Source: a phage. Taken from it: DNA of 52,493 bases. How positions within the stretch are numbered: the stretch's first letter is position 1; every line of letters begins with the position of its first letter. The stretch lies in assembly GCA_017676125.1 (NCBI GenBank), contig GCA_017676125.1_4893.1; one strand, given 5' to 3'. Of the stretch, positions 5,168 to 24,895 are shown one piece after another. The notes under the pieces were generated by a model. The model saw only the letters and a program-made list of their open reading frames with translations, was not told the DNA's origin and searched no databases. The translations under genes and the position numbers were made by a program.

Positions 5168-5187
5168 CCCACAAACGGGACTAACAA

Positions 5188-5216
5188 AAGGCGAGCTGAC
5201 GAGCTCGCCTTTTTTA
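5188..5216 (+). terminator. rho-independent terminator after capsid gene
   Basis: GC stem GGCGAGC/GCTCGCC (5190-5209) followed by TTTTTTATTT. Confidence 0.75.
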
Positions 5217-5245
5217 TTTACACGTATAAAGTTCTGGTATATAAT
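5217..5245 (+). promoter_or_regulatory. sigma70-like promoter TTTACA-N17-TATAAT
   Basis: -35 TTTACA 5217-5222, 17-nt spacer, -10 TATAAT 5240-5245, directly after terminator. Confidence 0.6.
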
Positions 5246-5271: not shown

Positions 5272-5772
5272 ATGGCATACACACTTGTTGTGGAAGACGG
5301 TTCAATTGTTCCGGGTGCTAACTCGTATGTTAGCGCTGCAGAAGTTGATGAGTTTATCACTAACGAAGGTATTCTCATTCAACCAGGAACTGACCCGTAT
5401 TACCAGGCTGCCAAAGCAGCTATTCGACTTGATAACCAGTTTAACTGGCTAGGTCGTAAGGTCAGCAAAACACAGAGCATGGCTTGGCCCCGTACTGGCC
5501 TCGGTGCATGTAATGTTGACATCGCTGAGTCTGTAATTCCGCGAGAAGTTAAGCTGGCACAGCTTTATATGATGGCCAGTGTATTGAGCTACGACGGTGA
5601 AGAAGGTGTGCGTAGCGACCAGGCTTTGCGCCGTAAGAAAGTTGGTAACCTGGAGATTGAATACTTCGACTCCAAATCAGGCGTTACCGGTGCAACTGAC
5701 CTTTGGACGTCAGACGTCAAGGCCATGCTCAAGCACCTTGTGGGTGCATCCCTGAGAACACGGAGAGTATAA
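5272..5772 (+). CDS. head-tail connector/adaptor protein (gp6-like)
   Basis: 166 aa ORF directly after capsid gene; N-terminal YVSAAEVDEF-type segment resembles head-tail connector proteins; gene order. Confidence 0.5.
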   Translation: MAYTLVVEDGSIVPGANSYVSAAEVDEFITNEGILIQPGTDPYYQAAKAAIRLDNQFNWLGRKVSKTQSMAWPRTGLGACNVDIAESVIPREVKLAQLYMMASVLSYDGEEGVRSDQALRRKKVGNLEIEYFDSKSGVTGATDLWTSDVKAMLKHLVGASLRTRRV

Positions 5773-6260
5773 TGATTCGTATACGCCTTGAACGTCGCGA
5801 CAAACAAAAGTTCGAGTTCACCTACCGTGCCTTTAAGTCGTTTGAAGGTCAAGGCGTATCAGTAGGTGTTCATCCAGAGCACAACAGACGTGTAAATCCC
5901 AGGGACCGTATAACAAACGCCGAGCTAGCAATGGTGCATGAGTACGGTCTTAACGGCCTGCCAGAACGAAGCTTTCTTCGTAGTGCTGTTGGTGGCAGGG
6001 GTAAAGGCCGACAGGCAATAAACAAAGCTTTCCGTGATAATGTGCCTGCTGTTCTCAGAGGAAGCATGACTGCGCATGAGCTTAATGACAAAATAGGTCG
6101 TATGCTTGTTGACGCTGTTCACGACAGAATGGACAGTGACGTGCCACCTCCTAACACCGAGCTGACAGAAGAACGCAAACGCGGGCCAGGTACACTTAGA
6201 GAATCTATGCAGTTGTATGATTCGATAGGGTACAAAGTTGGCAGAAACTGGAGGCTATAA
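5772..6260 (+). CDS. head-tail joining / head closure protein (hypothetical)
   Basis: ATG at 5772 overlaps upstream stop (TAATG); 163 aa; position in head-tail joining block. Confidence 0.45.
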   Translation: MIRIRLERRDKQKFEFTYRAFKSFEGQGVSVGVHPEHNRRVNPRDRITNAELAMVHEYGLNGLPERSFLRSAVGGRGKGRQAINKAFRDNVPAVLRGSMTAHELNDKIGRMLVDAVHDRMDSDVPPPNTELTEERKRGPGTLRESMQLYDSIGYKVGRNWRL

Positions 6261-6637
6261 TGCTCAAGATAACTTCGCTAATGAAGGATAAAACCTTTGT
6301 AGCATTAACAGATGTTCTTCTCCGAAATGATTCGCGCTTACCAAACGGCGACTTCGAAGACGAATATACAGCTGCAAAGTATCTGTGTAACATTCAACCT
6401 GGTGCAGCTACTAACCAGCCTAACCTGTTGACTAAAGACGATGGCGAGCATGAGTTCCCACGTATTGCGATATACTGTGGACAAGAACTAAAGCTCGGAG
6501 ACTTCGTTATATACGAAGACCAGCCATACCGTGTATTCCGTATCGACCCATGGAGTCGTCATGGCCACTACTACGTTACAGCAATTCTCCATAAAGGACC
6601 TCAGGGAGCTCGTTCAGAAGCTTTTAACATTACCTGA
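6260..6637 (+). CDS. hypothetical virion morphogenesis protein
   Basis: 125 aa ORF, start overlaps upstream stop; in head-tail joining block. Confidence 0.4.
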   Translation: MLKITSLMKDKTFVALTDVLLRNDSRLPNGDFEDEYTAAKYLCNIQPGAATNQPNLLTKDDGEHEFPRIAIYCGQELKLGDFVIYEDQPYRVFRIDPWSRHGHYYVTAILHKGPQGARSEAFNIT

Positions 6638-7088
6638 CGGTACATGCATTATTGGTGAAGAGTCTGGTACAGTTGATGGTACGCCGTATGTTTATCTGCG
6701 TCCTGGTGATGCTTATGACTTCGGACCTCCTAGAACCAGACAAGGCTCTGACGGCTTTGAGTACGTCAGCAAGCCAATGATGACAGCTGTACGTATTACA
6801 GCTGTCGGTAAGAATGCTGCTGAGCTAATGCGTAAGCTACACATAGCGCTGGGTAGTTCACCAGCTAAGCAGTTTAACCGTTTACGGCATTATGCAATAA
6901 CCAAAATATCGAAGATTGATAATGTCGGTGGTGCTATTGGTGCAGGCTATGCTCAGAAGTCAATGCTGACTGTTGATATTAGCTATGTGCATAAAGTTAA
7001 AATTGAGCAACCGTACATCTACAAGGTTGACATCACTTGTATGGATGACAACGGTAACAAAGCGACTGGTACAGTAGAGGAACCGTAA
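6561..7088 (+). CDS. hypothetical structural protein
   Basis: ORF in track starts at 6531; ATG at 6561 (MATTTLQQ) preferred; overlaps upstream ORF; start uncertain. Confidence 0.4.
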   Translation: MATTTLQQFSIKDLRELVQKLLTLPDGTCIIGEESGTVDGTPYVYLRPGDAYDFGPPRTRQGSDGFEYVSKPMMTAVRITAVGKNAAELMRKLHIALGSSPAKQFNRLRHYAITKISKIDNVGGAIGAGYAQKSMLTVDISYVHKVKIEQPYIYKVDITCMDDNGNKATGTVEEP

Positions 7089-7711
7089 TGGCAACTGAAG
7101 TAGACCCGGAACTGCAAGCGCAGCTGGATAAGCTAACAACTGCTGTCCAGCTCATTCATGACTTCGGTATGTCAGACAACCCAAACATCCCTAACCCGGA
7201 AGGCGGTGTCATACGCACACTCGAAGGCATTAACGCTGCAATCAACGAAGCTATACCAAACTTTGAAAACGCTAACGAAGCTGCTATCCAGGCGCGTGCT
7301 GCTCGTGACGCGGCTATTGCAGCCAAAGAAGCTGCAGAAACGGCAGCTGAACAGGCCACAGTAGCTTCGACGTCAGCAATCTATGAGTACGGCAACGTTG
7401 CAAGTGCAGCTACAGTGACTATACCAGCTGCATCTAAAACAATTGTCAGCCTTACTCTTAACCAGCCAAACACCGTAATTAATATCGGTGGTGTATCTGA
7501 CCCGTCTACTGTTGCGCGTCAGATTACTATTGCTATTAAGCAAGGCACTGGTTCTAACAAAGTGACTGCTTGGGATCCCAGAATAAAATGGGCTAATAAC
7601 AGAAAGCCCGTTCTGTCATTCCTTGTGGGTTACACAGATGTTGTTACGTTGCTTACCTTTGACTCAGGCGCAACTTGGATGGGTTTCTTTAACGGTGGAT
7701 GGATTAAATAA
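7088..7711 (+). CDS. hypothetical structural protein, Ala-rich
   Basis: 207 aa ORF with overlapping start/stop to neighbours; Ala/Glu-rich helical segment. Confidence 0.4.
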   Translation: MATEVDPELQAQLDKLTTAVQLIHDFGMSDNPNIPNPEGGVIRTLEGINAAINEAIPNFENANEAAIQARAARDAAIAAKEAAETAAEQATVASTSAIYEYGNVASAATVTIPAASKTIVSLTLNQPNTVINIGGVSDPSTVARQITIAIKQGTGSNKVTAWDPRIKWANNRKPVLSFLVGYTDVVTLLTFDSGATWMGFFNGGWIK

Positions 7712-10668
7712 TGCACACGATGTTGCTTAAAGACGGATCAGACCATCGAGCTAATGTCGAAAGCCTTATCGAAGGTCACCACCACTTTCTTGAGCGCAAT
7801 ACTGGCAGAACTGACGACGCTACGCGTCAGCACTATATCTTCAACCCAGAAGGAGTAGTGTCGAACAACCGCCATTTTATTGCACACACTATGATGGAGT
7901 ATCAGCCTAACGGTGATGCTCCGTCTGAAAGTCAGTCGCTGCTAATACTCGGCGAAATTCACGCGTACCTTGCTACTAAGGAACAGCGGTACCTTGACAA
8001 AGCAATTGAGTACTTCAATGCTTACGTCAAGTACTATTACGAGGGGGACCCAATCCCTGATACTCCTCGTCGCTGGATCGCTAACTGGCTTTGTAATGGC
8101 AAAGAGCCTGTGCTAGCCAGCTTCCCAATCAACCCTGATTCACCAACACAAGGCGGCTATAAAAATGTGCCAGTTAAATTTGTTAACGGCAAAGCACAAA
8201 TCCCTCATGGTTCTCCTTTCTGGGGCGAGTACCTGGATGTTGCTACTTGGGCCCACAGGGGACACATGGCTTGGCCTGCTATTAATGGTGGTGTCCGTGT
8301 TATTAAAAATAAAGTTGACTGGGACGATATTTACAACAATTATCGCATCACTACCATGCCAGCTGACCCGTGGAATCAGTTAGCCTGGATTGACTGGCCG
8401 AGGTATCTGGGCGAACCAAGCTACACTGTGGACTGGTCAGCTGCTGAACCTCCTGTACATCTCATCGAGTATATTGTTGCATGGACCAACAACAAGATTG
8501 GTGTTCTGCCTGGCAAAAACGATGAGCTATGGGGAGGCGAGATTCTTGAGACTGGACTGCCTGACTCTCGCAGAGGTGAGATTCAACTCCGTGACCACAC
8601 TGTTAACGGTGTGTATCTGCTTAACTATGCCGTTAAGCTTCCTGTTGAACACGGTGGTTATTTGCTTAAGCGAAATGAAGTATGGCACAACAGACCGGTA
8701 AACGTTCCACTGTACGGCGAGCTTCAACGTGGTAATGCTGCTGATGCTGAGTTGTGGTTCTGTGACTGCTGCTATATGCTGTGGCGAATTACTAAAGAGC
8801 AAAAGTATTACAACGCTTGGCAAGCTGTCCTGTTTACGCTGGAGGAGTATATTGATATTGATAAACAAGACCAGTTCTTCCGTCAAGACTCTCACGCGTC
8901 ATCTCCGTTTACTGATGGCATCTCTTATGATTGGTCTTATCCTGAACTGGCACAAGCTATATATTCACGTGATGAAAATGGTTATATAGTTCTACGCCAG
9001 AACCAAAAAGCTCAATCATCTCTGGAGCAACAGGCTGTATGGTTTAAGTGTAAGCCAACAGCTAAGATACGTACAGAGGTTGGTGGCAAAGATGATGCTG
9101 GTCAGAATATCAGTGTCAAGGTGGAAATGTACATGAACCGTGAAAAGGTTGACGTTGAGCAAAACATCTATCGTTTTGTCACACAGCTACCTGCTCTTGG
9201 TGCTTCACCTGCTAACTACGACATTCCGTTAAGCGATTTTGTCGCAGGTACTAAGCCAGATGGTTCTGAGTATATCTTAGCTGATATTCGTTCATCCACT
9301 GATTATGGCAATGCCACTATTGCAGTGTCTTACCGTACTGACATACTTGACAACAGACGTGGCAACACTGTCCGTATGACAATACCGGATAGTTCGTCAG
9401 GTGCCATTATAGGCTTTTGGCTACTGGAATCTTCCCAGGCACCTTTAAACTCGCTGACGTATACTTCTACAGGTCCGTTGTGCATCAAAGTAACTGACGC
9501 GCAAGGCTGGAGTTGGGTACGTGATTTACCTGCCGCACCAGGATGGGTAACTCAGCAGATTCGCACCTGGGAGTTCAGGCTGGCGTCATACCAGGAAAAC
9601 ACAGGTACACCACCAGCTAGTCCACAATTCGGCGAGATTAAGCAGTTCTCGTTTGTACTGCCTGATGGTGTTAATACGTCGACAAGTATTAGCTGGTACT
9701 GTGTGAATGATGTTCCGCCTCGCTATAACTGGCCAATCGGCTATACGATTAAGTATCGTCTTACTTTCTCGGCTGATAACCCGTACACAGCTAGACTTGG
9801 CGACTGTACTGTGCTGGACTATGAGAATGATAACCTTGCTTACACGCCAGGTGTTATTCCGTTCTCCAACATTTATAACCCTGATTCTAAGCAGTTCGAT
9901 GGTTGGCACGGTATACCTTACCCTGGTTATCAGTATCCGTTTGTCTTTACGCATGACGACACCGCAGCAGGTACAATCAGGCTGAACAACATGGTTAACT
10001 TTTTGTACGATTCTCAGCAATGGTACTATAAGAAGTTTGGTCAGCTAGGTCCTGGTGCATCTGCTTTTATCTGGAACCGTTGGGATAACTTTAAATACGG
10101 TGTACCTGATACGTTTACCATGTATCACTGGGGTAATGGTAGTGCATGGTCAGGTTACCAGCCTCGTGCTTACTTCTCCGCAGCACGTGGATGGTATGAG
10201 CTAGTAAACCGTGGTAAGCCAGTTCCGAGTAAGCTTATTGCTTATGTTGATAACTGGTCAAAATGGTTGCTTGACTTCATGGAAAGGTCAGGAGGTGTGT
10301 CACCTTCTAACTTCCCGCAAGAAGGTGTTGCTCTGCCAGTCCCTTCAGACTTCACAGGTCACATGTGCGGACTATGGCTTGCTGGTGCAGCTATGTCTGC
10401 CCTTTGTGGGTCAACGGTGTCAGGACTTGATAAGCTGATGGATATGCTTGTCAATGAGCTGGAAGACCACTATGACATAACTGGTATTCCTGGGCACGTA
10501 ATGGATGGTGGTTGGTCGCCAGCGTTACGCCTTGAAACTGGTACAGGACCTGAAAGCAACGCCATGTACTATGGTTTTTACTCTGGCGAAATATTGCGAG
10601 GGTTGGGCTTATACCTGCTGTACAAAAACAAAGGGGCTAAAGCAGATATTTATGATTTAGGCCCGTAA
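7711..10668 (+). CDS. large virion-associated protein, aromatic-rich; possible polysaccharide-binding/degrading (depolymerase-like) protein
   Basis: 985 aa ORF, translationally coupled to upstream gene; very high Trp/Tyr/Gly/Asn content typical of carbohydrate-active folds; no catalytic motif recognised by eye. Confidence 0.45.
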   Translation: MHTMLLKDGSDHRANVESLIEGHHHFLERNTGRTDDATRQHYIFNPEGVVSNNRHFIAHTMMEYQPNGDAPSESQSLLILGEIHAYLATKEQRYLDKAIEYFNAYVKYYYEGDPIPDTPRRWIANWLCNGKEPVLASFPINPDSPTQGGYKNVPVKFVNGKAQIPHGSPFWGEYLDVATWAHRGHMAWPAINGGVRVIKNKVDWDDIYNNYRITTMPADPWNQLAWIDWPRYLGEPSYTVDWSAAEPPVHLIEYIVAWTNNKIGVLPGKNDELWGGEILETGLPDSRRGEIQLRDHTVNGVYLLNYAVKLPVEHGGYLLKRNEVWHNRPVNVPLYGELQRGNAADAELWFCDCCYMLWRITKEQKYYNAWQAVLFTLEEYIDIDKQDQFFRQDSHASSPFTDGISYDWSYPELAQAIYSRDENGYIVLRQNQKAQSSLEQQAVWFKCKPTAKIRTEVGGKDDAGQNISVKVEMYMNREKVDVEQNIYRFVTQLPALGASPANYDIPLSDFVAGTKPDGSEYILADIRSSTDYGNATIAVSYRTDILDNRRGNTVRMTIPDSSSGAIIGFWLLESSQAPLNSLTYTSTGPLCIKVTDAQGWSWVRDLPAAPGWVTQQIRTWEFRLASYQENTGTPPASPQFGEIKQFSFVLPDGVNTSTSISWYCVNDVPPRYNWPIGYTIKYRLTFSADNPYTARLGDCTVLDYENDNLAYTPGVIPFSNIYNPDSKQFDGWHGIPYPGYQYPFVFTHDDTAAGTIRLNNMVNFLYDSQQWYYKKFGQLGPGASAFIWNRWDNFKYGVPDTFTMYHWGNGSAWSGYQPRAYFSAARGWYELVNRGKPVPSKLIAYVDNWSKWLLDFMERSGGVSPSNFPQEGVALPVPSDFTGHMCGLWLAGAAMSALCGSTVSGLDKLMDMLVNELEDHYDITGIPGHVMDGGWSPALRLETGTGPESNAMYYGFYSGEILRGLGLYLLYKNKGAKADIYDLGP

Positions 10669-10674
10669 CCACTA

Positions 10675-10703
10675 TTTACTTAACCGAGGCGCCAGCCTAT
10701 AAT
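10675..10703 (+). promoter_or_regulatory. sigma70-like promoter TTTACT-N17-TATAAT with palindrome flanking the -10
   Basis: -35 TTTACT 10675-10680, -10 TATAAT 10698-10703; GCGCCAGC (10689-10696) and GCTGGCGC (10706-10713) inverted repeat. Confidence 0.55.
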
Positions 10704-10735
10704 AAGCTGGCGCACCCAATAAGAGGATTCTCCAG

Positions 10736-11374
10736 ATGGCAAATCGTACTACAGCCAACCGTCCTGTTAAAGACGCAGACCTGCGTCAAGAGTCGGTTAC
10801 TCAGTTCCCATTAGCCAAGCCGACCAAGCTTGATGCGAACGGAAAATTCATTCCAACCCCAGTTACCGGTGTAACTGCTACACCTAAGGCTAAGTCAATT
10901 GCTGTTGGTGAGTTTACAACTCTGTCAGCAGCAGTAGCACCGGCAGACGCAGATGACGTCACCGTATTGTGGGAAAGCGATACGCCTGCTAACGCCACTG
11001 TTGATGGTTCAGGTCGTGTTCAGGGTATCAAAGTTGGTTCAGCAACTATTACTGCTAAATCCAAGCTTGACCCTTCCAAAACAGATACTGTAGCAATTAC
11101 GGTAACTGCTCCGCCGGTAGCCGTTACTGGTGTTACGTTAGCGCCTAAGTCGCCAAGCGTTGTAGTAGGCTCCACTGTACAGCTGACTGCAACTGTACTA
11201 CCTGCTGGCGCTACTAACAAAGCTGTTACCTACGAATCAAACGACCAGGCTAAAGCTACCGTTAGTGCAACTGGTCTGGTGACCGGTAAAGCAGCTGGTG
11301 TCGTCACCATCACTGTCAAAACAGCTGATGGCAGCTTCACTGACACCGCGTCAGTAACTGTTACTGCTGAGTAA
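10736..11374 (+). CDS. Ig-like (BIG2) domain protein
   Basis: 212 aa; two Ig-like repeats with the VTGVT...ATV...TVT pattern typical of bacterial Ig-like group 2 domains. Confidence 0.7.
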   Translation: MANRTTANRPVKDADLRQESVTQFPLAKPTKLDANGKFIPTPVTGVTATPKAKSIAVGEFTTLSAAVAPADADDVTVLWESDTPANATVDGSGRVQGIKVGSATITAKSKLDPSKTDTVAITVTAPPVAVTGVTLAPKSPSVVVGSTVQLTATVLPAGATNKAVTYESNDQAKATVSATGLVTGKAAGVVTITVKTADGSFTDTASVTVTAE

Positions 11375-11382
11375 GGAGCTGA

Positions 11383-13515
11383 TTGATGTCGCTTCCACTT
11401 AATGAGGTTGTCGACGTCCAGTTCAGTAAGAGCAACGGGGGTAAAGGTTTTACCCCCAATGTTCCGCTGGAAGGTATAATGCTTTCCAACTACGAGTACT
11501 CAATCGTCGCGGGTGATGACCCTGTTCAGCTAGCTGTGCGTTACATTCCAACCAACGCTACTGAGCGTGGTATGGCGTGGAAATCTAGCGACCCGGACAT
11601 TATCACTGTTGATGAGCTCGGATTTGTGAAGCCACTGGCGGAAGGTGTTGCATACGTGACTGGTACATCTGTTGACGGCGGTTATACAGTACGGGCAAAG
11701 TTTAACATTGCTCGGGCACCTATCCTTGTTGAATCTGTTACAGTGTCTCCCACAAGCGTGACGCTTGAAGAAGGCAAGACTCAACGCCTGACATACACCT
11801 ATTTACCTGCTAATGCAGACAAACCTGATTTCTACTGGATTTCAGACGATGAGTCTGTTGCTATCGTTAACGATAGCGGGCTTGTCACTGCCATTGGAGA
11901 TGGCGAAACAACTGTAAACGTACAGTACGGTGTTGACAGCTCTATATTCGATAGCTGTACTGTAACTGTTATTCCGCCTGTTGTACACGTTACAGGAGTT
12001 GAGTTTCTTACTCAGTCACCTCTTAACGTTAATATCGGAAGCACAGCTGGGACTAGTATTCGTATATCGCCAGAAGATGCCACTGACAAAACAGTGACAT
12101 ACGAAAGCAGCGCGCCTACTGTAGCAACTGTGGATACTGACGGAAATGTTACTGGTATTATAGCTGGTAATGCCACTGTTACTGTTAAGACGAATGACGG
12201 TGATAAGACTGACACTCTTGACATTATCGTCAGGGTGCCTGCTGTAAATGTTACCGGTGTAAGTATTGACGAAGGCGATACAGCTTCCATGGAAGTTGGT
12301 GACACTCTTCAGCTACATGCCACTGTGACGCCTGAAAATGCTACTGACCCGTCTGTTGTATGGAGTGCTCCTGTATCAGAAGTTGCGTCTGTGACTGAAG
12401 CTGGTTTGGTAACCGCTAACGCTGCAGGCTTAATTGATGTTACTGTTATCACTAACGACGGGAACTTTACTGACAGAATCGAGGTTAAAGTTACAGACCC
12501 CAGAATCGCAGTTACTGATGTTACATGGGCTCCTGACTCTCCGACTAAAGTAAGCGCTGGTCATCAGGTGCAGACTAAAATTGTTATAACACCTGACAAC
12601 GCAACTAACAAAAAAGTTAGCTACAATAGTTCAAACCCAGACGCTGTTACTGTTGACACTAACGGAGTTATATACGGCCAATCTCCTGGAACTTCGACTA
12701 TTACAGTTACAACAGACGACGGTGGACTTGTTGCTTCGTTTGTAGCGACTTGCACAGAGGTGGCTGTTATTACACCAGATGGTCTTGGTGGTATTCCAGT
12801 AGGTGGTACTCAGCAGTTCACTTACACTGTTAACCAGTCTGACGCTGAGCTGACTAATATTCGTTATGAGTCTGCTGACCCAGCTATTGCAACTGTTGAT
12901 TCATCAGGCGTTGTAACTGGTGTTGCTAGCGGCGGATGTAACATCTGGATTTATGCAACTAGTAATGGTGCTGATATTAGTGCAGCTACTTGGGCACAAA
13001 TTTCTGAGAAGGTACAGGTATACCCTCAGTATGCCGAATGGCTTGTGGGTAACACCAAACAGCTTGATGTTGAGATTTATCCGTCTGACTCTAAGAGCGT
13101 TACCGTTACTTATGAATCGTCAAATGACGCTATCATTAGTATAGATGCAAATGGCTTGATGACTGCTAAATCTGAAGGTTCAGCAACTATTACTGCTAAC
13201 GTTGTGATGAACGGTGTTGCTGCTTCTGGTACAACATCTCCTTACGTGTCTGAGCTTTCTGTTACTACCGATTCGCTGCCTGCACTTACTGTTGGCAACA
13301 CGCAGCAGCTGGTTGTAACTGTTAGACCTGAATACGCTAAGACAGACCCAGGCTATAACATTCAGTATACAACTACAGACGATACTGTCGCTACTGTAAG
13401 TAATACCGGTGTTATTACGGGCGTTGGTAACGGTGGATGCCGTATTGGTGCCACAGTAACTGTGAGAAATGCTACAGCGTCGGACAGCTCTTATCAGTCC
13501 GTCGATGCAGCATAA
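11383..13515 (+). CDS. Ig-like (BIG2) repeat protein, multi-domain (decoration or fibre-like)
   Basis: 710 aa; about seven tandem ~85-aa Ig-like repeats (V.VTGV....P....VG.T.QL.ATV.P.NAT...V.W.S....ATVD..G.VT...G.A.ITA). Confidence 0.7.
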   Translation: MMSLPLNEVVDVQFSKSNGGKGFTPNVPLEGIMLSNYEYSIVAGDDPVQLAVRYIPTNATERGMAWKSSDPDIITVDELGFVKPLAEGVAYVTGTSVDGGYTVRAKFNIARAPILVESVTVSPTSVTLEEGKTQRLTYTYLPANADKPDFYWISDDESVAIVNDSGLVTAIGDGETTVNVQYGVDSSIFDSCTVTVIPPVVHVTGVEFLTQSPLNVNIGSTAGTSIRISPEDATDKTVTYESSAPTVATVDTDGNVTGIIAGNATVTVKTNDGDKTDTLDIIVRVPAVNVTGVSIDEGDTASMEVGDTLQLHATVTPENATDPSVVWSAPVSEVASVTEAGLVTANAAGLIDVTVITNDGNFTDRIEVKVTDPRIAVTDVTWAPDSPTKVSAGHQVQTKIVITPDNATNKKVSYNSSNPDAVTVDTNGVIYGQSPGTSTITVTTDDGGLVASFVATCTEVAVITPDGLGGIPVGGTQQFTYTVNQSDAELTNIRYESADPAIATVDSSGVVTGVASGGCNIWIYATSNGADISAATWAQISEKVQVYPQYAEWLVGNTKQLDVEIYPSDSKSVTVTYESSNDAIISIDANGLMTAKSEGSATITANVVMNGVAASGTTSPYVSELSVTTDSLPALTVGNTQQLVVTVRPEYAKTDPGYNIQYTTTDDTVATVSNTGVITGVGNGGCRIGATVTVRNATASDSSYQSVDAA

Positions 13516-13540: not shown

Positions 13541-13569
13541 TTTACTTGGTTAAACTTACTGAGTATAAT
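13541..13569 (+). promoter_or_regulatory. sigma70-like promoter TTTACT-N17-TATAAT upstream of tail genes
   Basis: -35 TTTACT 13541-13546, -10 TATAAT 13564-13569; bracketed by GGCCAT/ATGGCC inverted repeat. Confidence 0.55.
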
Positions 13570-13601: not shown

Positions 13602-14741
13602 ATGCCGTTGAATGTAAACCAGATTGTAAACGTTCAACTGAACAACACTCCAACTGGTATCAGCAAAGGTGACTTCGGTAAGCTGGCTCTTTTAACTCAG
13701 GACCCTGGTACTGCTTTTCCTGACAGCGACAACGGACACTATGTTGAAATCGGCAGCTACTCTGAAGCCGAGTCTTATTGGGGTACTGGTTCAGTTGTAC
13801 TTGGCGCGCTGAAGATTTTCTTTGCACAATCTCCGCGTCCTCGTTCAGTAGTTATCGCCTCATGGAGCAACACCTCTACTCTGGATGCGGCTATTAGAGC
13901 ATTCAACGATGTGTATCCTGACTGGTATGTTCTGCGTCCGCTTCCGCCTACTGGTGAGCTGTCTGACGATGACATCAGTTTGCTGGCGTCAACTGTTGCT
14001 GCTTACGATAAAAAACGTTGCAGCTACACTACCACTAAAGCAACTCATATTGAAAACAGCGACTCCAACCCGATTAAAACTCTGGCTGGTAAAGGCTACA
14101 ACAATATGTGGCTTCAGTACGATAAGAACAACCAACACTATGCAGACATTTCTGCTATGGCGCGTGCTCTGTCTGTTAACTTCTCAGGTAACCGCACTAC
14201 GATTACCATGAAGTTCAAACAAGAGCCTGGTATTACACCGAACAACACTTTAACGCTCACTGAAGCTAACAAGTGTAAGGCGCTGGGTATTAACTGGTAC
14301 ACCTACTACAGCACCTTTGCTATGCTTGCAGAAGGTACTGTCCTTGGTACGTCCAAGCCGCCGCGCTTCTGGGATGAAGTACATGGTCTCGACTGGTTCT
14401 GTAATGCTGTCCAGACTTATGTCTTCAACTCAATCGCTACGTCACCCACGAAGGTGCCGCAGACGAACAAAGGTCACGAGCGCCTTACTGGTGCTGCAGC
14501 TGTTGCTTGTCAGCAGGCTGTCGACAACGGCTTGGTTGCACCTGGTATCTGGTACGGTGATGAGTTTGGTACACTGTCTTATGGTGACCGACTCGAAACA
14601 GGTTTCTACATCTACATCCCTGACGTAGATGACCAGCCTCTGGATGAGCGTGAAGCTCGTCAGGCCGTTGTAATGCAAATCGCGATTAAGCTGGCGGGTG
14701 CAATCCACTCCAGCGACATCCTGATTAACTTCACTCGCTAA
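13602..14741 (+). CDS. putative tail sheath protein
   Basis: 379 aa ORF at head of tail module, followed by tube-sized gene, chaperone with frameshift and tape measure; assignment from gene order only. Confidence 0.5.
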   Translation: MPLNVNQIVNVQLNNTPTGISKGDFGKLALLTQDPGTAFPDSDNGHYVEIGSYSEAESYWGTGSVVLGALKIFFAQSPRPRSVVIASWSNTSTLDAAIRAFNDVYPDWYVLRPLPPTGELSDDDISLLASTVAAYDKKRCSYTTTKATHIENSDSNPIKTLAGKGYNNMWLQYDKNNQHYADISAMARALSVNFSGNRTTITMKFKQEPGITPNNTLTLTEANKCKALGINWYTYYSTFAMLAEGTVLGTSKPPRFWDEVHGLDWFCNAVQTYVFNSIATSPTKVPQTNKGHERLTGAAAVACQQAVDNGLVAPGIWYGDEFGTLSYGDRLETGFYIYIPDVDDQPLDEREARQAVVMQIAIKLAGAIHSSDILINFTR

Positions 14742-23845: not shown

Positions 23846-24388
23846 ATGACTAAGCATAAGGTGTTCCGTAACTTTACCATGTACCATCCTGAGGTAACAG
23901 AAGAGAACGAGAACATTGTAAATGCTGGTGCAATCTTCCTCAAGGATGAGGAAGGTCGCGACTGGTATAATCTCGCAAAAGAGTTCGCTATCAAATACGA
24001 AGGCGCAACGTTCTTGCAGGTAGATAAGAACGGAGTTGTAATTGCGGCACATACCGACCCAACTATGTTCCATCCTGTGGGTTGCGATATGGTTGTAACG
24101 TACGACCCGCCTTTCAACATCTTCGAGACGGTTGGCGAATGGCTGTTTGACGGTAAAGAGTTTACGCTTAACGCACCAATGATGAAGGAGATTGCTCGTG
24201 AGCGTAAAGAACAAGCTCTGTCCATCGCTTCGACCAAGGTCAGTGTTTTACGTGACACAGTTGATAGTGGCAATGCTACCGATGAAGAAAAAGAGCTATT
24301 TGCTAAATGGCGTGATTACAGGATTGCTGTCAATCGTCTTGACATTAACCTTGGTTCCGCTATGGTTGTTCCACCTATGCCGGAGTAA
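23846..24388 (+). CDS. tail fiber assembly chaperone (paralog 1)
   Basis: 180 aa; clear paralogy with next ORF (shared ...F.NFT.Y.P...IFLKDEEG.DW..LAKE... pattern); position after tail fiber. Confidence 0.5.
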   Translation: MTKHKVFRNFTMYHPEVTEENENIVNAGAIFLKDEEGRDWYNLAKEFAIKYEGATFLQVDKNGVVIAAHTDPTMFHPVGCDMVVTYDPPFNIFETVGEWLFDGKEFTLNAPMMKEIARERKEQALSIASTKVSVLRDTVDSGNATDEEKELFAKWRDYRIAVNRLDINLGSAMVVPPMPE

Positions 24389-24391
24389 ACC

Positions 24392-24895
24392 ATGCAACTG
24401 TCATTTTTCAACTTTACAGAATACAACCCACAAAGGACGGCGGAGACACTTCCGCTGATTAAGCAAGGCGTTGTATTCATCAAGGATAACAATGGTAATG
24501 ACTGGCGCAAGCTGGCTAAAGAGCTGGCTAAGAATAAAGAGCTGGTTCATTACATTGTTGTGGACAAGTACAATGCTGTTGCCGCGTATGCTAACGACCC
24601 TACGCTACTGTTTCCTGTTAATTGCGATTTGCATATTGTTGAGTCTGTCCCTGTTGCTAAGTTTGCGGATTGCTATTACGAATGGTCGTACGTTAATGGC
24701 AAGTTTGTTAAGCACTCTGAACTGCAGAAGGTGATTGCAGAAGAACGCCTGCAGGAAGAACAGGCTTGGGTTGAAGGACAACTCGACACTGAAGAAGATG
24801 AGGAACGTATTATCGCTCTCCATAAATTCCGTGCCGATTTGTTGCTGCTTGTTATGTCAGATGCGCCGCATATCGACTGGCCTGTACGACCGTAA
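24392..24895 (+). CDS. tail fiber assembly chaperone (paralog 2)
   Basis: 167 aa; paralog of 23846-24388. Confidence 0.5.
   Translation: MQLSFFNFTEYNPQRTAETLPLIKQGVVFIKDNNGNDWRKLAKELAKNKELVHYIVVDKYNAVAAYANDPTLLFPVNCDLHIVESVPVAKFADCYYEWSYVNGKFVKHSELQKVIAEERLQEEQAWVEGQLDTEEDEERIIALHKFRADLLLLVMSDAPHIDWPVRP

Follow-up and report, generated by a model that had tools for sequence, protein, structure and literature searches.

What do the four genes between the tail terminator gene and the tail sheath gene of a Rosemountvirus-type phage contribute to its virion? The question is raised by a stretch of phage DNA of 52,493 nucleotides (contig GCA_017676125.1_4893.1 of GenBank assembly GCA_017676125.1; this whole stretch is called the window below), in which an earlier note, made from the letters alone, had pointed to a 207-residue Ala-rich protein, a 985-residue protein very rich in Trp, Tyr, Asn and Gly, and two proteins of 212 and 710 residues with BIG2-type immunoglobulin (Ig)-like domains. 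The four open reading frames (ORFs) are present as described, on the plus strand between the head-tail joining genes and the sheath gene (Table 1). Residue counts agree with the compositions (15.9% Ala in the small protein; 3.7% Trp, 6.4% Tyr, 5.9% Asn and 8.3% Gly in the large one), and Pfam Big_2 matches bear out the Ig-like domains of the other two. The explanation that we favour overall, with a probability of about 0.55, is that the segment encodes two adjacent virion-appendage units, one formed by the 207- and 985-residue proteins (7088-10668) and one by the two Ig-like proteins (10736-13515).

Each of the four genes has a full-length PHROG family (E 1e-58 to 0) and homologues in the hundreds, and they can therefore be regarded as real genes rather than chance ORFs. 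The DNA of the segment is 96-98% identical to that of about 40 deposited Rosemountvirus genomes, including PA13076, 8-19, BP63, UPF_BP2 and the SPLA phages, in whose records the four genes are labelled tail fibre protein, tail protein, Ig-domain structural protein and 'major tail protein'. To the Salmonella phages PA13076, 8-19 and BP63 the window is about 98% identical. The order of the four genes is retained in the sister genus Loughboroughvirus (S144), and also in the far more divergent metagenomic relatives L018 and L019 (53-61 kb), whose partner protein is only ~50% identical. The segment is thus a stable feature of the lineage and not a recent insertion. The view that it was an unusual insert in a phage with a Mu/P2-like tail did not hold in its second part either, since only the tail fibre is Mu gpS-like, while the E217/phiTE/phi92 type is found in the sheath, the tube, the hub and the spike.

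The 985-residue protein and its small partner

The 985-residue protein matches PHROG 2871 over residues 3-980 (E 0, 1423 bits). As a query it is covered to at least 80% by 521 phage records, and at least 533 deposited phage genomes carry the family, including therapy-relevant rV5-like, phi92-like, Kolesnikvirus, Rosemountvirus and jumbo phages. Among the 60 closest phage records, 41 are at least 95% identical to it. Identity is 82% in S144, 45% in Kolesnikvirus, 42.6% in gp141 of phi92 and 29% in rV5-like phages, and further full-length homologues occur in PVP-SE1-like phages, in the jumbo phages Asesino, SPAsTU and 121Q (43-47%) and in Vibrio phages (28-30%). Pfam, searched even with the barrel core alone and up to an E of 10, and NCBIfam gave no match for this protein, and a sequence search of the PDB gave none for it or for the 207-residue protein. 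A point beyond the earlier note is that phi92 gp141 has been called a glycosidase since 2012; it is also listed among depolymerases in a review, and the S144 authors reported an HHpred hydrolase signal for their homologue, ORF17.

Structure prediction and a fold search had been proposed for this protein in the earlier note. A confident AlphaFold2 model built with 42 homologues (predicted local distance difference test score 87.4, predicted template modelling score 0.84) has helical hairpins at residues 13-109, 344-386 and 743-974, which are interrupted by beta-rich insertions at residues 126-335 and 401-735. The model contains the (alpha/alpha)6 barrel of a glycoside hydrolase (GH) fold, as is characteristic of GH48, and no homology to a non-enzymatic structural family was found. 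With Foldseek, GH48 and the beta-glucan-binding carbohydrate-binding module (CBM) family CBM11 were matched with a probability of 1.0. A beta-helix catalytic domain of the kind found in classical trimeric tailspikes was looked for in the model and is not present, and at the sequence level neither membership of GH8 (PF01270, BcsZ type) nor the signature of that family was found.

Within the barrel, Glu73, Asp345 and Glu347 stand at the N-terminal ends of helices. They do not vary in the 42 close homologues, nor in 15 distant sequences with identities as low as 30%, and the same holds for a set of aromatic and Arg residues. From their positions in the model we infer that Glu73 may serve as the general acid and Asp345/Glu347 as the base. 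The stretch NAADAE...DQFFRQ of the 985-residue protein aligns at equal spacing with NAPDAE...DKYFRQ of the GH48 protein gp094 of Erwinia phage S6, at an hhalign E of only 0.02 and a probability of 1-2%; according to the commentary on S6, the catalytic base of gp094 lies in this region. As the GH48 alignments are not significant, we class the protein as one of GH fold that is clan-GH-M-like, and assign it to neither GH48 nor GH8. On balance, a catalytic role is slightly more likely than not.

The enzymes of SPLA2 and SPLA11 differ by 31 substitutions, of which 11 fall in residues 200-249 and none in the N-terminal barrel segment; this 50-residue patch is possibly a specificity-modulating surface. 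PHROG 23426 matches residues 520-701. Residues 509-704 constitute a mobile module, which is also found as the C-terminus of gp040, a 502-residue tail fibre of Kolesnikvirus M7 (L014, 31143-31745; PHROG 23426; tblastn 30% identity, E 1e-23); a carbohydrate-binding-type module is shuffled between enzyme and fibre tip.

The 207-residue partner comprises N-terminal helices with a long Ala-rich helix (residues 7-97) and a C-terminal beta-sandwich (residues 98-207, nt 7379-7708). In an alignment of the small proteins, the C-terminal ~110 residues are conserved (QGxGxNKVTW...KW...P.LS...D.G..W.G) and the N-terminal parts are unrelated. According to the rV5 paper, the partner in that phage, gp43, has an N-terminus similar to the particle-binding domain of the P22 tailspike. 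We also considered phiTE as a structural guide to the small partner and set it aside: it is without the cassette, phiTE_241 is a 793-residue fibre, and weak precomputed PF26209 matches were not reproduced.

That the two genes form a portable and translationally coupled pair was likewise not part of the earlier note. The arrangement of small gene and large gene, with a 1-nt overlap or a near-abutting junction, recurs in myo-, sipho-, podo- and jumbo phages. It is found in the baseplate module of phi92, beside the tailspike genes (gp140/gp141), at the end of the fibre module in Kolesnikvirus SB18 and M7, isolated among hypothetical genes in jumbo phage Asesino, in rV5-like FFH2, directly 3' of a lambda-gpJ-like tip gene in a siphovirus contig, and directly 3' of the adaptor gene in an SU10-like podovirus contig; these two contigs bear the labels L007 and L020. 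In addition, natural fusions show what can flank the enzyme. A P2 gpI baseplate-wedge domain stands ahead of it in P0064 (a complete Tail_P2_I domain, E 4e-52) and in Serratia PCH45, whereas P0104 has a fibre-type N-terminus ahead and a GP4 gp77 Ig domain behind; the metagenomic P0120 carries an N4-gp65-type TIM barrel behind the enzyme, and P0042, P0055 and P0081 an Ig array of ~700 residues. These fusions give the topology virion, attachment module, enzyme and optional distal module.

Set against this topology, we infer that the 207-residue protein is the detachable attachment module of the enzyme. Its lineage-specific N-terminal coiled coil would fix the adaptor to the virion, and its conserved C-terminal beta-sandwich would dock the 985-residue protein. 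As regards phi92, gp142 (L001, 11871-14030) combines an N-domain of the N4 gp64/gp65 'non-contractile tail sheath' type with a TIM barrel. In P0120, a gp142-type module is fused to the C-terminus of a gp141-like enzyme, which suggests a physical link between the two proteins in phi92-like phages.

The Ig-like proteins and the sheath-like arm

In Pfam Big_2 (PF02368, gathering cut-off 22.8), the 212-residue protein has two matching stretches (116 bits, E 7e-34; domains at residues 40-125 and 126-211) and the array protein has eight (304 bits, E 1.7e-92). A repeat profile built here placed eight contiguous Ig domains back to back at residues 24-706 of the array, where about seven repeats had been counted before. 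The only non-Ig parts are the N-terminal peptides of 23 residues in the array and of 39 residues in the 212-residue protein, the latter of which is conserved. The array gene likely starts at ATG 11386, 7 nt after AAGGAG, which gives 709 residues, while TTG 11383 gives 710; PHROG 28902 matches the array over 709/709, the exact length of the family. No structural protein varies more between genera than the array, which is 48% identical to that of S144 and whose length varies with the number of repeats, with 709 residues (8) in the window and SPLA2, 622-624 (7) in SPLA11, S144 and L018, and 953 (~11) in L019. Siphoviral arrays that are fused to the enzyme share the C-terminal ...ATASD(S/T)S... 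end with the array of the window. Because the enzyme is fused to such an array in some siphoviruses, the two units are expected to cooperate functionally. The 212-residue protein is proposed to be an abundant two-domain decoration protein.

The 23-residue arm of the array provides a clue to where the Ig string might be attached. Its residues 6-14 match the N-terminus of the sheath protein in the same register, N-(E/Q)-(V/I)-V-(D/N)-V-Q-(F/L)-(S/N); in S144 the first 24 residues of the array are retained with 100% identity, and L018 and L019 still show the motif. When scored in fixed register with BLOSUM62, arm and sheath N-terminus gave 25, 25, 22 and 39 in four lineages. For all pairs of ORF N-termini of the window, the corresponding score was -18.6 +/- 9.6, and 1/2628 pairs reaches 25. 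The fixed-register test over four lineages was needed since a gapped local alignment of the two N-termini was only marginal on its own (z 2.8). A recent DNA duplication was considered as the source of the similarity and rejected, as 32/72 nt are identical, with 7/24 at third positions. With so few nucleotide matches, the similarity is kept at the protein level.

In the structure of E217, N- and C-terminal arms knit the sheath together, and a C-terminal strand of the terminator completes the sheet in the top ring. By analogy, the array would be an eight-domain string of ~30 nm whose 23-residue arm may plug into the sheath mesh by beta-strand addition; the most plausible docking point would be the neck-proximal ring, which has a vacant arm site. 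We regard docking of the array through its sheath-like arm as a tentative proposal drawn from sequence comparison.

The Ig genes may also be expressed as a unit of their own. A promoter-like site lies ahead of the 212-residue protein gene (Table 1), and the second unit (10736-13515) would be transcribed from it. Three look-alike sites, TTTAC(A/T)-17-TATAAT, occur at 5217-5245 (before the Ad1 gene), 10675-10703 (212-residue protein) and 13541-13569 (sheath), the first of them after a strong terminator-like hairpin at 5186-5213, 3' of the capsid gene. Promoter-like sites are not more numerous in the scanned region than in shuffles of it, and what is notable is therefore only the similarity and the placement of the three sites; the S144 record annotates promoters at equivalent places. 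An inverted repeat of 8 bp, rich in GC, GCGCCAGC / GCTGGCGC (10689-10696 / 10706-10713), has the -10 TATAAT of the middle site in its 9-nt loop. Lying between the enzyme and Ig genes, this hairpin (10689-10713) might act in regulation, in RNA processing or at an RNA end.

Evidence for virion presence comes from relatives. In the part of the S144 electrospray tandem mass spectrometry (MS) table considered here, gp16 is represented by 3 peptides, gp17 (111 kDa) by 25, and gp18 (22 kDa) by 17 with 80% coverage, the highest in that part. Proteomics of rV5 detected gp42 and gp43 in virions.

Target glycan and competing explanations

For the 985-residue protein, the window, SPLA2 and SPLA11 share 97-99% identity, and its homologues in phages and prophage regions from Salmonella, Erwinia, Pseudomonas, Acinetobacter and Gluconobacter are 42-50% identical to it. 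Such conservation across hosts points to a chemically invariant target rather than to an O-antigen or a capsule, and the BASEL study stated that the conserved fibre genes of Vequintavirinae probably target conserved glycans (PMC8594841). TraDIS (the sequencing of transposon insertion sites) in S. Typhimurium identified yhjU, L, N, Q, R and S, which belong to the bcs genes for cellulose, as susceptibility genes for the Rosemountvirus SPLA2 (PMC10949491), whose enzyme is 98.6% identical to that of the window. Erwinia Kolesnikvirus M7 is reported to be cellulose-dependent as well (PMC13101476), and it carries the cassette as gp041/gp042 (46-58% identical); the cassette was not found in the LPS (lipopolysaccharide)-specific Erwinia myovirus Y2. 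The bcs dependence of SPLA2 and M7, taken together with a GH48/GH8/CBM11-like fold, makes bacterial cellulose the best single candidate. The argument is correlative, and we place the odds that cellulose is the target somewhat below even.

In the explanation that we favour, the 985-residue protein would bind and probably cleave an invariant glycan of the host surface, for which (phosphoethanolamine-)cellulose from the biofilm matrix is the best candidate. It would be used as an appendage that aids attachment to, or tunnelling through, the cellulose layer before the Mu-type tail fibre and the baseplate engage LPS, and the Ig domains would add weak, multivalent adhesion to glycans.

A number of results weigh against parts of this scheme. 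With regard to the enzyme, a profile search of the PDB returned only a GH76 helix-hairpin (E 0.078), and HMMER, run exhaustively over 1.84 billion cluster representatives, gave only 255 clusters at E <= 1e-3, with GH48 absent from the matches and no bridge to bacterial enzyme families. A comparison by hhalign with a 27-sequence GH48 profile gave a probability of 1.2% (E 0.045), so that membership of GH48 was not found by sequence, nor was that of any CAZy family. Moreover, the fold does not fix the substrate, since GH48 and GH8 are equalled in score by GH105, GH76 and GH88. E. coli K-12 makes no cellulose because of a bcsQ defect. As cassette-bearing rV5-like and phi92-like phages plate on K-12, the enzyme is at most conditionally needed there. 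The correlation with cellulose rests on two phages, and the dependence of M7 is in part an unpublished observation of its authors; for SPLA11, TraDIS pointed to LPS and not to bcs despite a 97% identical enzyme (PMC10949491). With regard to location, the 2026 cryo-electron microscopy study of phi92 never mentions gp141, treats gp140 as a candidate that fits no density and leaves fibre II unassigned. In the part of the S144 MS table considered here, ORF19, which is the S144 homologue of the Ig array, does not appear; this is weak evidence since only 25% of the array of the window falls in tryptic peptides of 7-30 residues. Finally, the Big_2 protein gp008 of M7 bears no resemblance to the sheath N-terminus of its own phage (score -17), and arm mimicry would thus be specific to the Rosemountvirus-type lineage. 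As a separate comparison, no single determinant that separates SPLA2 from SPLA11 stands out: the enzymes are 96.9% and the fibres 97.7% identical, and the Ig arrays differ by one domain.

How do other explanations of the same genes compare? The 985-residue protein could be a non-catalytic, lectin-type receptor-binding or scaffold protein, in which a glycosidase fold is kept as a pocket or hub. The lack of a CAZy match by sequence would agree with this, as would the frequent C-terminal add-ons (Ig array, N4-gp65-type TIM barrel, GP4 gp77 Ig domain), which suit a hub, and the fact that phi92 gp141 adjoins gp142 and gp143, with an unassigned 'arm-like scaffold' in fibre I. However, invariant acidic residues at helix N-termini, with aromatic and Arg residues kept down to 30% identity, represent more constraint than a scaffold needs, and the GH48-like motif pair, although not a significant alignment, points to an enzyme; we therefore hold the non-catalytic alternative to be rather unlikely. 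An enzyme active on another conserved glycan (enterobacterial common antigen (ECA), an N4-type NGR glycan, poly-GlcNAc or the LPS core), to which the association with cellulose would be coincidental, has in our judgement a similarly low probability. Cassette-bearing Vequintavirinae and phi92-like phages depend on wecB and infect cellulose-negative K-12 (PMC8594841), and SPLA11 depends on LPS and not on bcs, both of which speak for it. Yet the ECA candidate of BASEL is a different protein, of the phi92 gp142 type, ECA is confined to Enterobacterales whereas homologues of the 985-residue protein occur in Vibrio, Pseudomonas, Acinetobacter and Gluconobacter contexts, and two independent cassette-bearing lineages are bcs-dependent. 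We had considered that the 985-residue protein might be the BASEL 'sugar deacetylase' fibre (ECA candidate; NCTSP TIM barrel), and this identity was rejected, as N4 gp64/gp65 matches phi92 gp142 and not gp141. Against the 985-residue protein itself, N4 gp64/gp65 gave a BLASTP E of 0.78, tblastn found nothing in the window, and by hhalign the match is confined to the C-terminal extension of P0120. That the protein is a tailspike of the classical kind, which sets host range as a serotype-specific depolymerase of capsule or O-antigen, is very improbable. The glycosidase fold, the presence in virions and the place of phi92 gp141 in the list of depolymerases are in keeping with it, but the protein is no beta-helix, its 97-99% identity spans Rosemountviruses with different receptors and its 42-50% identity spans host genera, and the BASEL view of conserved glycans contradicts it too. 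The depolymerase or receptor-binding protein suspected in the earlier note thus survives as a probable glycan-directed virion protein of GH fold and not as a serotype-specific depolymerase, and the Ig-like proteins survive as probable adhesins.

The remaining alternatives concern the location of the proteins. All four might form a neck appendage, a collar/whisker complex like T4 wac or the Bas63 collar-whisker. The position of the genes between terminator and sheath would be explained, P0104 ends in the Ig domain of the GP4 gp77 fibre-tail adaptor, which has the fold of the Bas63 collar, phi92 gp140 and the 207-residue protein resemble the head/capsid spike of Pa223, and a sheath-like arm would fit the top sheath ring. 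On the other hand, the cassette lies elsewhere in baseplate or fibre modules or after gpJ, its enzyme is fused to the baseplate wedge gpI in P0064 and Serratia PCH45, and the Ig-like collar of Bas63, with its rope extension and small whisker dimers, has by its description an architecture unlike that of the four proteins; we consider a common neck complex improbable, more so than a non-catalytic protein or another glycan. The Ig proteins could instead be Hoc-like capsid decorations unrelated to the enzyme, their adjacency being a matter of gene order only. PHROG 215, 'structural protein with Ig domain', is in the head category, the 80% coverage of the 212-residue homologue in the part of the S144 table considered suggests a high copy number, the PDB matches include the Hoc-like ORF90, and the Ig genes have their own promoter-like site. 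What tells against unrelated decorations is that the enzyme is fused with a homologous Ig array in siphoviruses and that the arm of the array resembles the sheath rather than a capsid-binding domain. This is a possible explanation, about as likely as the docking through the arm itself. Altogether, two adjacent appendage units, of which the first carries a predicted enzyme, remain the explanation that we prefer.

Surrounding genes, significance and known systems

The features discussed here are listed in Table 1.

Table 1. Features of the four-gene segment and its surroundings in the window, with the Ig arrays of relatives
Feature	Position	Strand	Remarks
207-residue adaptor/small partner protein (proposed)	7088..7711	+	stop overlaps next ATG by 1 nt
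985-residue virion protein, predicted (alpha/alpha)6-barrel glycoside hydrolase fold	7711..10668	+	phi92 gp141/rV5 gp42/S144 ORF17 family, PHROG 2871
Glu73 codon, candidate general acid	7927..7929	+	motif SESQS here, TTEGQS in family; N-terminal end of helix 72-89
Beta-rich insertion A in barrel (residues 126-335)	8086..8715	+	holds most variable patch, residues 200-249 (nt 8308-8457)
Asp345-Ala-Glu347 codons, candidate general base/catalytic carboxylates	8743..8751	+	motif NAADAE, start of helix 344-361
Beta-sandwich insertion B (residues 401-735), CBM-like domains	8911..9915	+	Foldseek CBM11 probability 1.0
Promoter-like TTTACT-17-TATAAT	10675-10703 (element 10675..10713)	+	consensus match only; in 67-nt gap after enzyme gene
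212-residue Big_2 protein	10736..11374	+	39-residue N-terminal peptide (10736-10852) and two Ig-like domains
709-residue Ig-array protein	11386..13515	+	23-residue arm (11386-11454) and eight Big_2 domains (nt 11455-13503)
Tail sheath gene	13602..14741	+	Pfam DUF3383/E217_gp31_N, E 6.6e-72; N-terminal arm MPLNVNQIVNVQLNN...
Ig arrays in relatives	L006 1888-3756; L003 7208-9082; L019 14534-17395		

The segment is flanked upstream by a tail terminator gene (PF23961), which ends at 7088 and is preceded by the genes for the major capsid protein (Gp13-like), the Ad1 adaptor, a Neck1-type protein and a head protein. Downstream follow a sheath gene of the DUF3383/E217-gp31 type and a tube gene of the KPP10/phiTE type. 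In the ORF list, two neck genes (5703-6260 and 6531-7088) have TTG/GTG starts and overlap the preceding genes by 70-107 nt; the SPLA2 annotation is shorter for both and corresponds to 5772-6260 and 6561-7088 of the window, which are probably the real starts. After the Mu gpS-like fibre gene lie tandem tail-fibre assembly (chaperone) genes (23846-24388 and 24392-24895). At 43-44% identity to S144 they are the most divergent structural genes between both genera, which agrees with the S144 paper, where host range was attributed to fibre and chaperones. Strand switches of the GC skew fall near 26 and 46 kb, and the DNA at 44-50 kb is richer in AT (GC 0.39-0.44). Some public records appear to carry the wrong host name: this Salmonella/E. 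coli phage shares 96.6% identity with 'Listeria phage 220426122051', and the 'Campylobacter phage A150/A116' records, which carry rV5/phi92-like sequences, look mislabelled as well.

The genes and their family are already deposited, known and annotated, though uncharacterised. What is new here is computational: a confident fold assignment with invariant candidate catalytic residues in the model, an adaptor-plus-enzyme cassette that appears common to all tail morphotypes and comes with informative fusions, an apparent coincidence with cellulose dependence in two lineages, and a putative sheath-arm-like anchor of an Ig string. In its fullest form, the proposal would be that gp141-like proteins are new, sequence-isolated, virion-borne GH48/GH8-like beta-glucanases on a universal plug-in adaptor, that cellulose is a widespread and overlooked primary phage receptor or barrier, and that the eight-Ig string is fixed to the tail by a peptide that mimics a sheath arm; as a whole we offer this only tentatively.

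Should the beta-glucanase interpretation be correct, cellulose would matter as a receptor or barrier in Enterobacterales and beyond. An enzyme directed at cellulose would explain the bcs dependence of the unrelated phages SPLA2 (Salmonella) and M7 (Erwinia), would represent a new GH family, and would provide a reusable adaptor-plus-enzyme cassette for the engineering of biofilm-penetrating phages. If the interpretation of the arm is correct, there would be a new way to decorate a contractile tail, and the sheath-arm-like anchor suggests a simple, transferable tag for protein display on such tails. If the 985-residue protein is not an enzyme, the segment consists of ordinary, conserved and already annotated tail accessory genes of a well-sampled genus. 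The function and the virion position of this widespread protein family are now directly testable questions.

Among known systems, the closest to the proposed anchor is E217 gp29, the tail terminator or gateway protein, which belongs to a phage with the same sheath family and is a non-sheath protein that joins the mesh in the neck-proximal ring by an added strand; unlike for gp29, strand addition by the Ig array is suggested by peptide similarity only. Virion-exposed Ig-like domains are shared with T4 Hoc, Bas63 Hex-Dec and the C-terminal Ig domain of lambda gpV, here in the form of Big_2 domains of varying repeat number, but the Ig proteins of the window have no capsid-binding domain. The cellulases of clan GH-M (GH48 CelS, Cel48F and B. 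pumilus GH48; GH8 CelA and the BcsZ type) have no significant sequence or profile similarity to the 985-residue protein, which differs from them by its two large beta insertions and by being virion-borne and adaptor-paired. The strategy is conceptually the same as that of Erwinia phage S6, an N4-like podovirus for which cellulose is the receptor and which encodes cellulase-fold proteins in its tail-appendage locus; S6 is without a homologue of the 985- or 207-residue protein and has instead a bona fide Pfam GH48 protein, gp094, and a GH5 protein, gp095, that is a verified cellulase.

The cassette itself has its nearest counterparts in phi92 gp140-gp141, rV5 gp43-gp42, PVP-SE1 gp51-gp50 and S144 ORF16-ORF17, in each of which a small partner lies directly upstream with the same stop/start overlap; the large proteins of phi92-like and rV5-related phages in this group are 42-47% identical over their full length. 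The window differs from relatives of the phi92 and rV5 type in that the pair is placed between terminator and sheath and not inside the baseplate/fibre module; its partner protein has a lineage-specific coiled coil as the N-terminal half. The C-terminal beta-sandwich of the partner resembles the adaptor domains on which tailspikes dock, the nearest kinds being the N-terminal XD (T4 gp10-like) of CBA120 TSP4 and the particle-binding domains of tailspikes.

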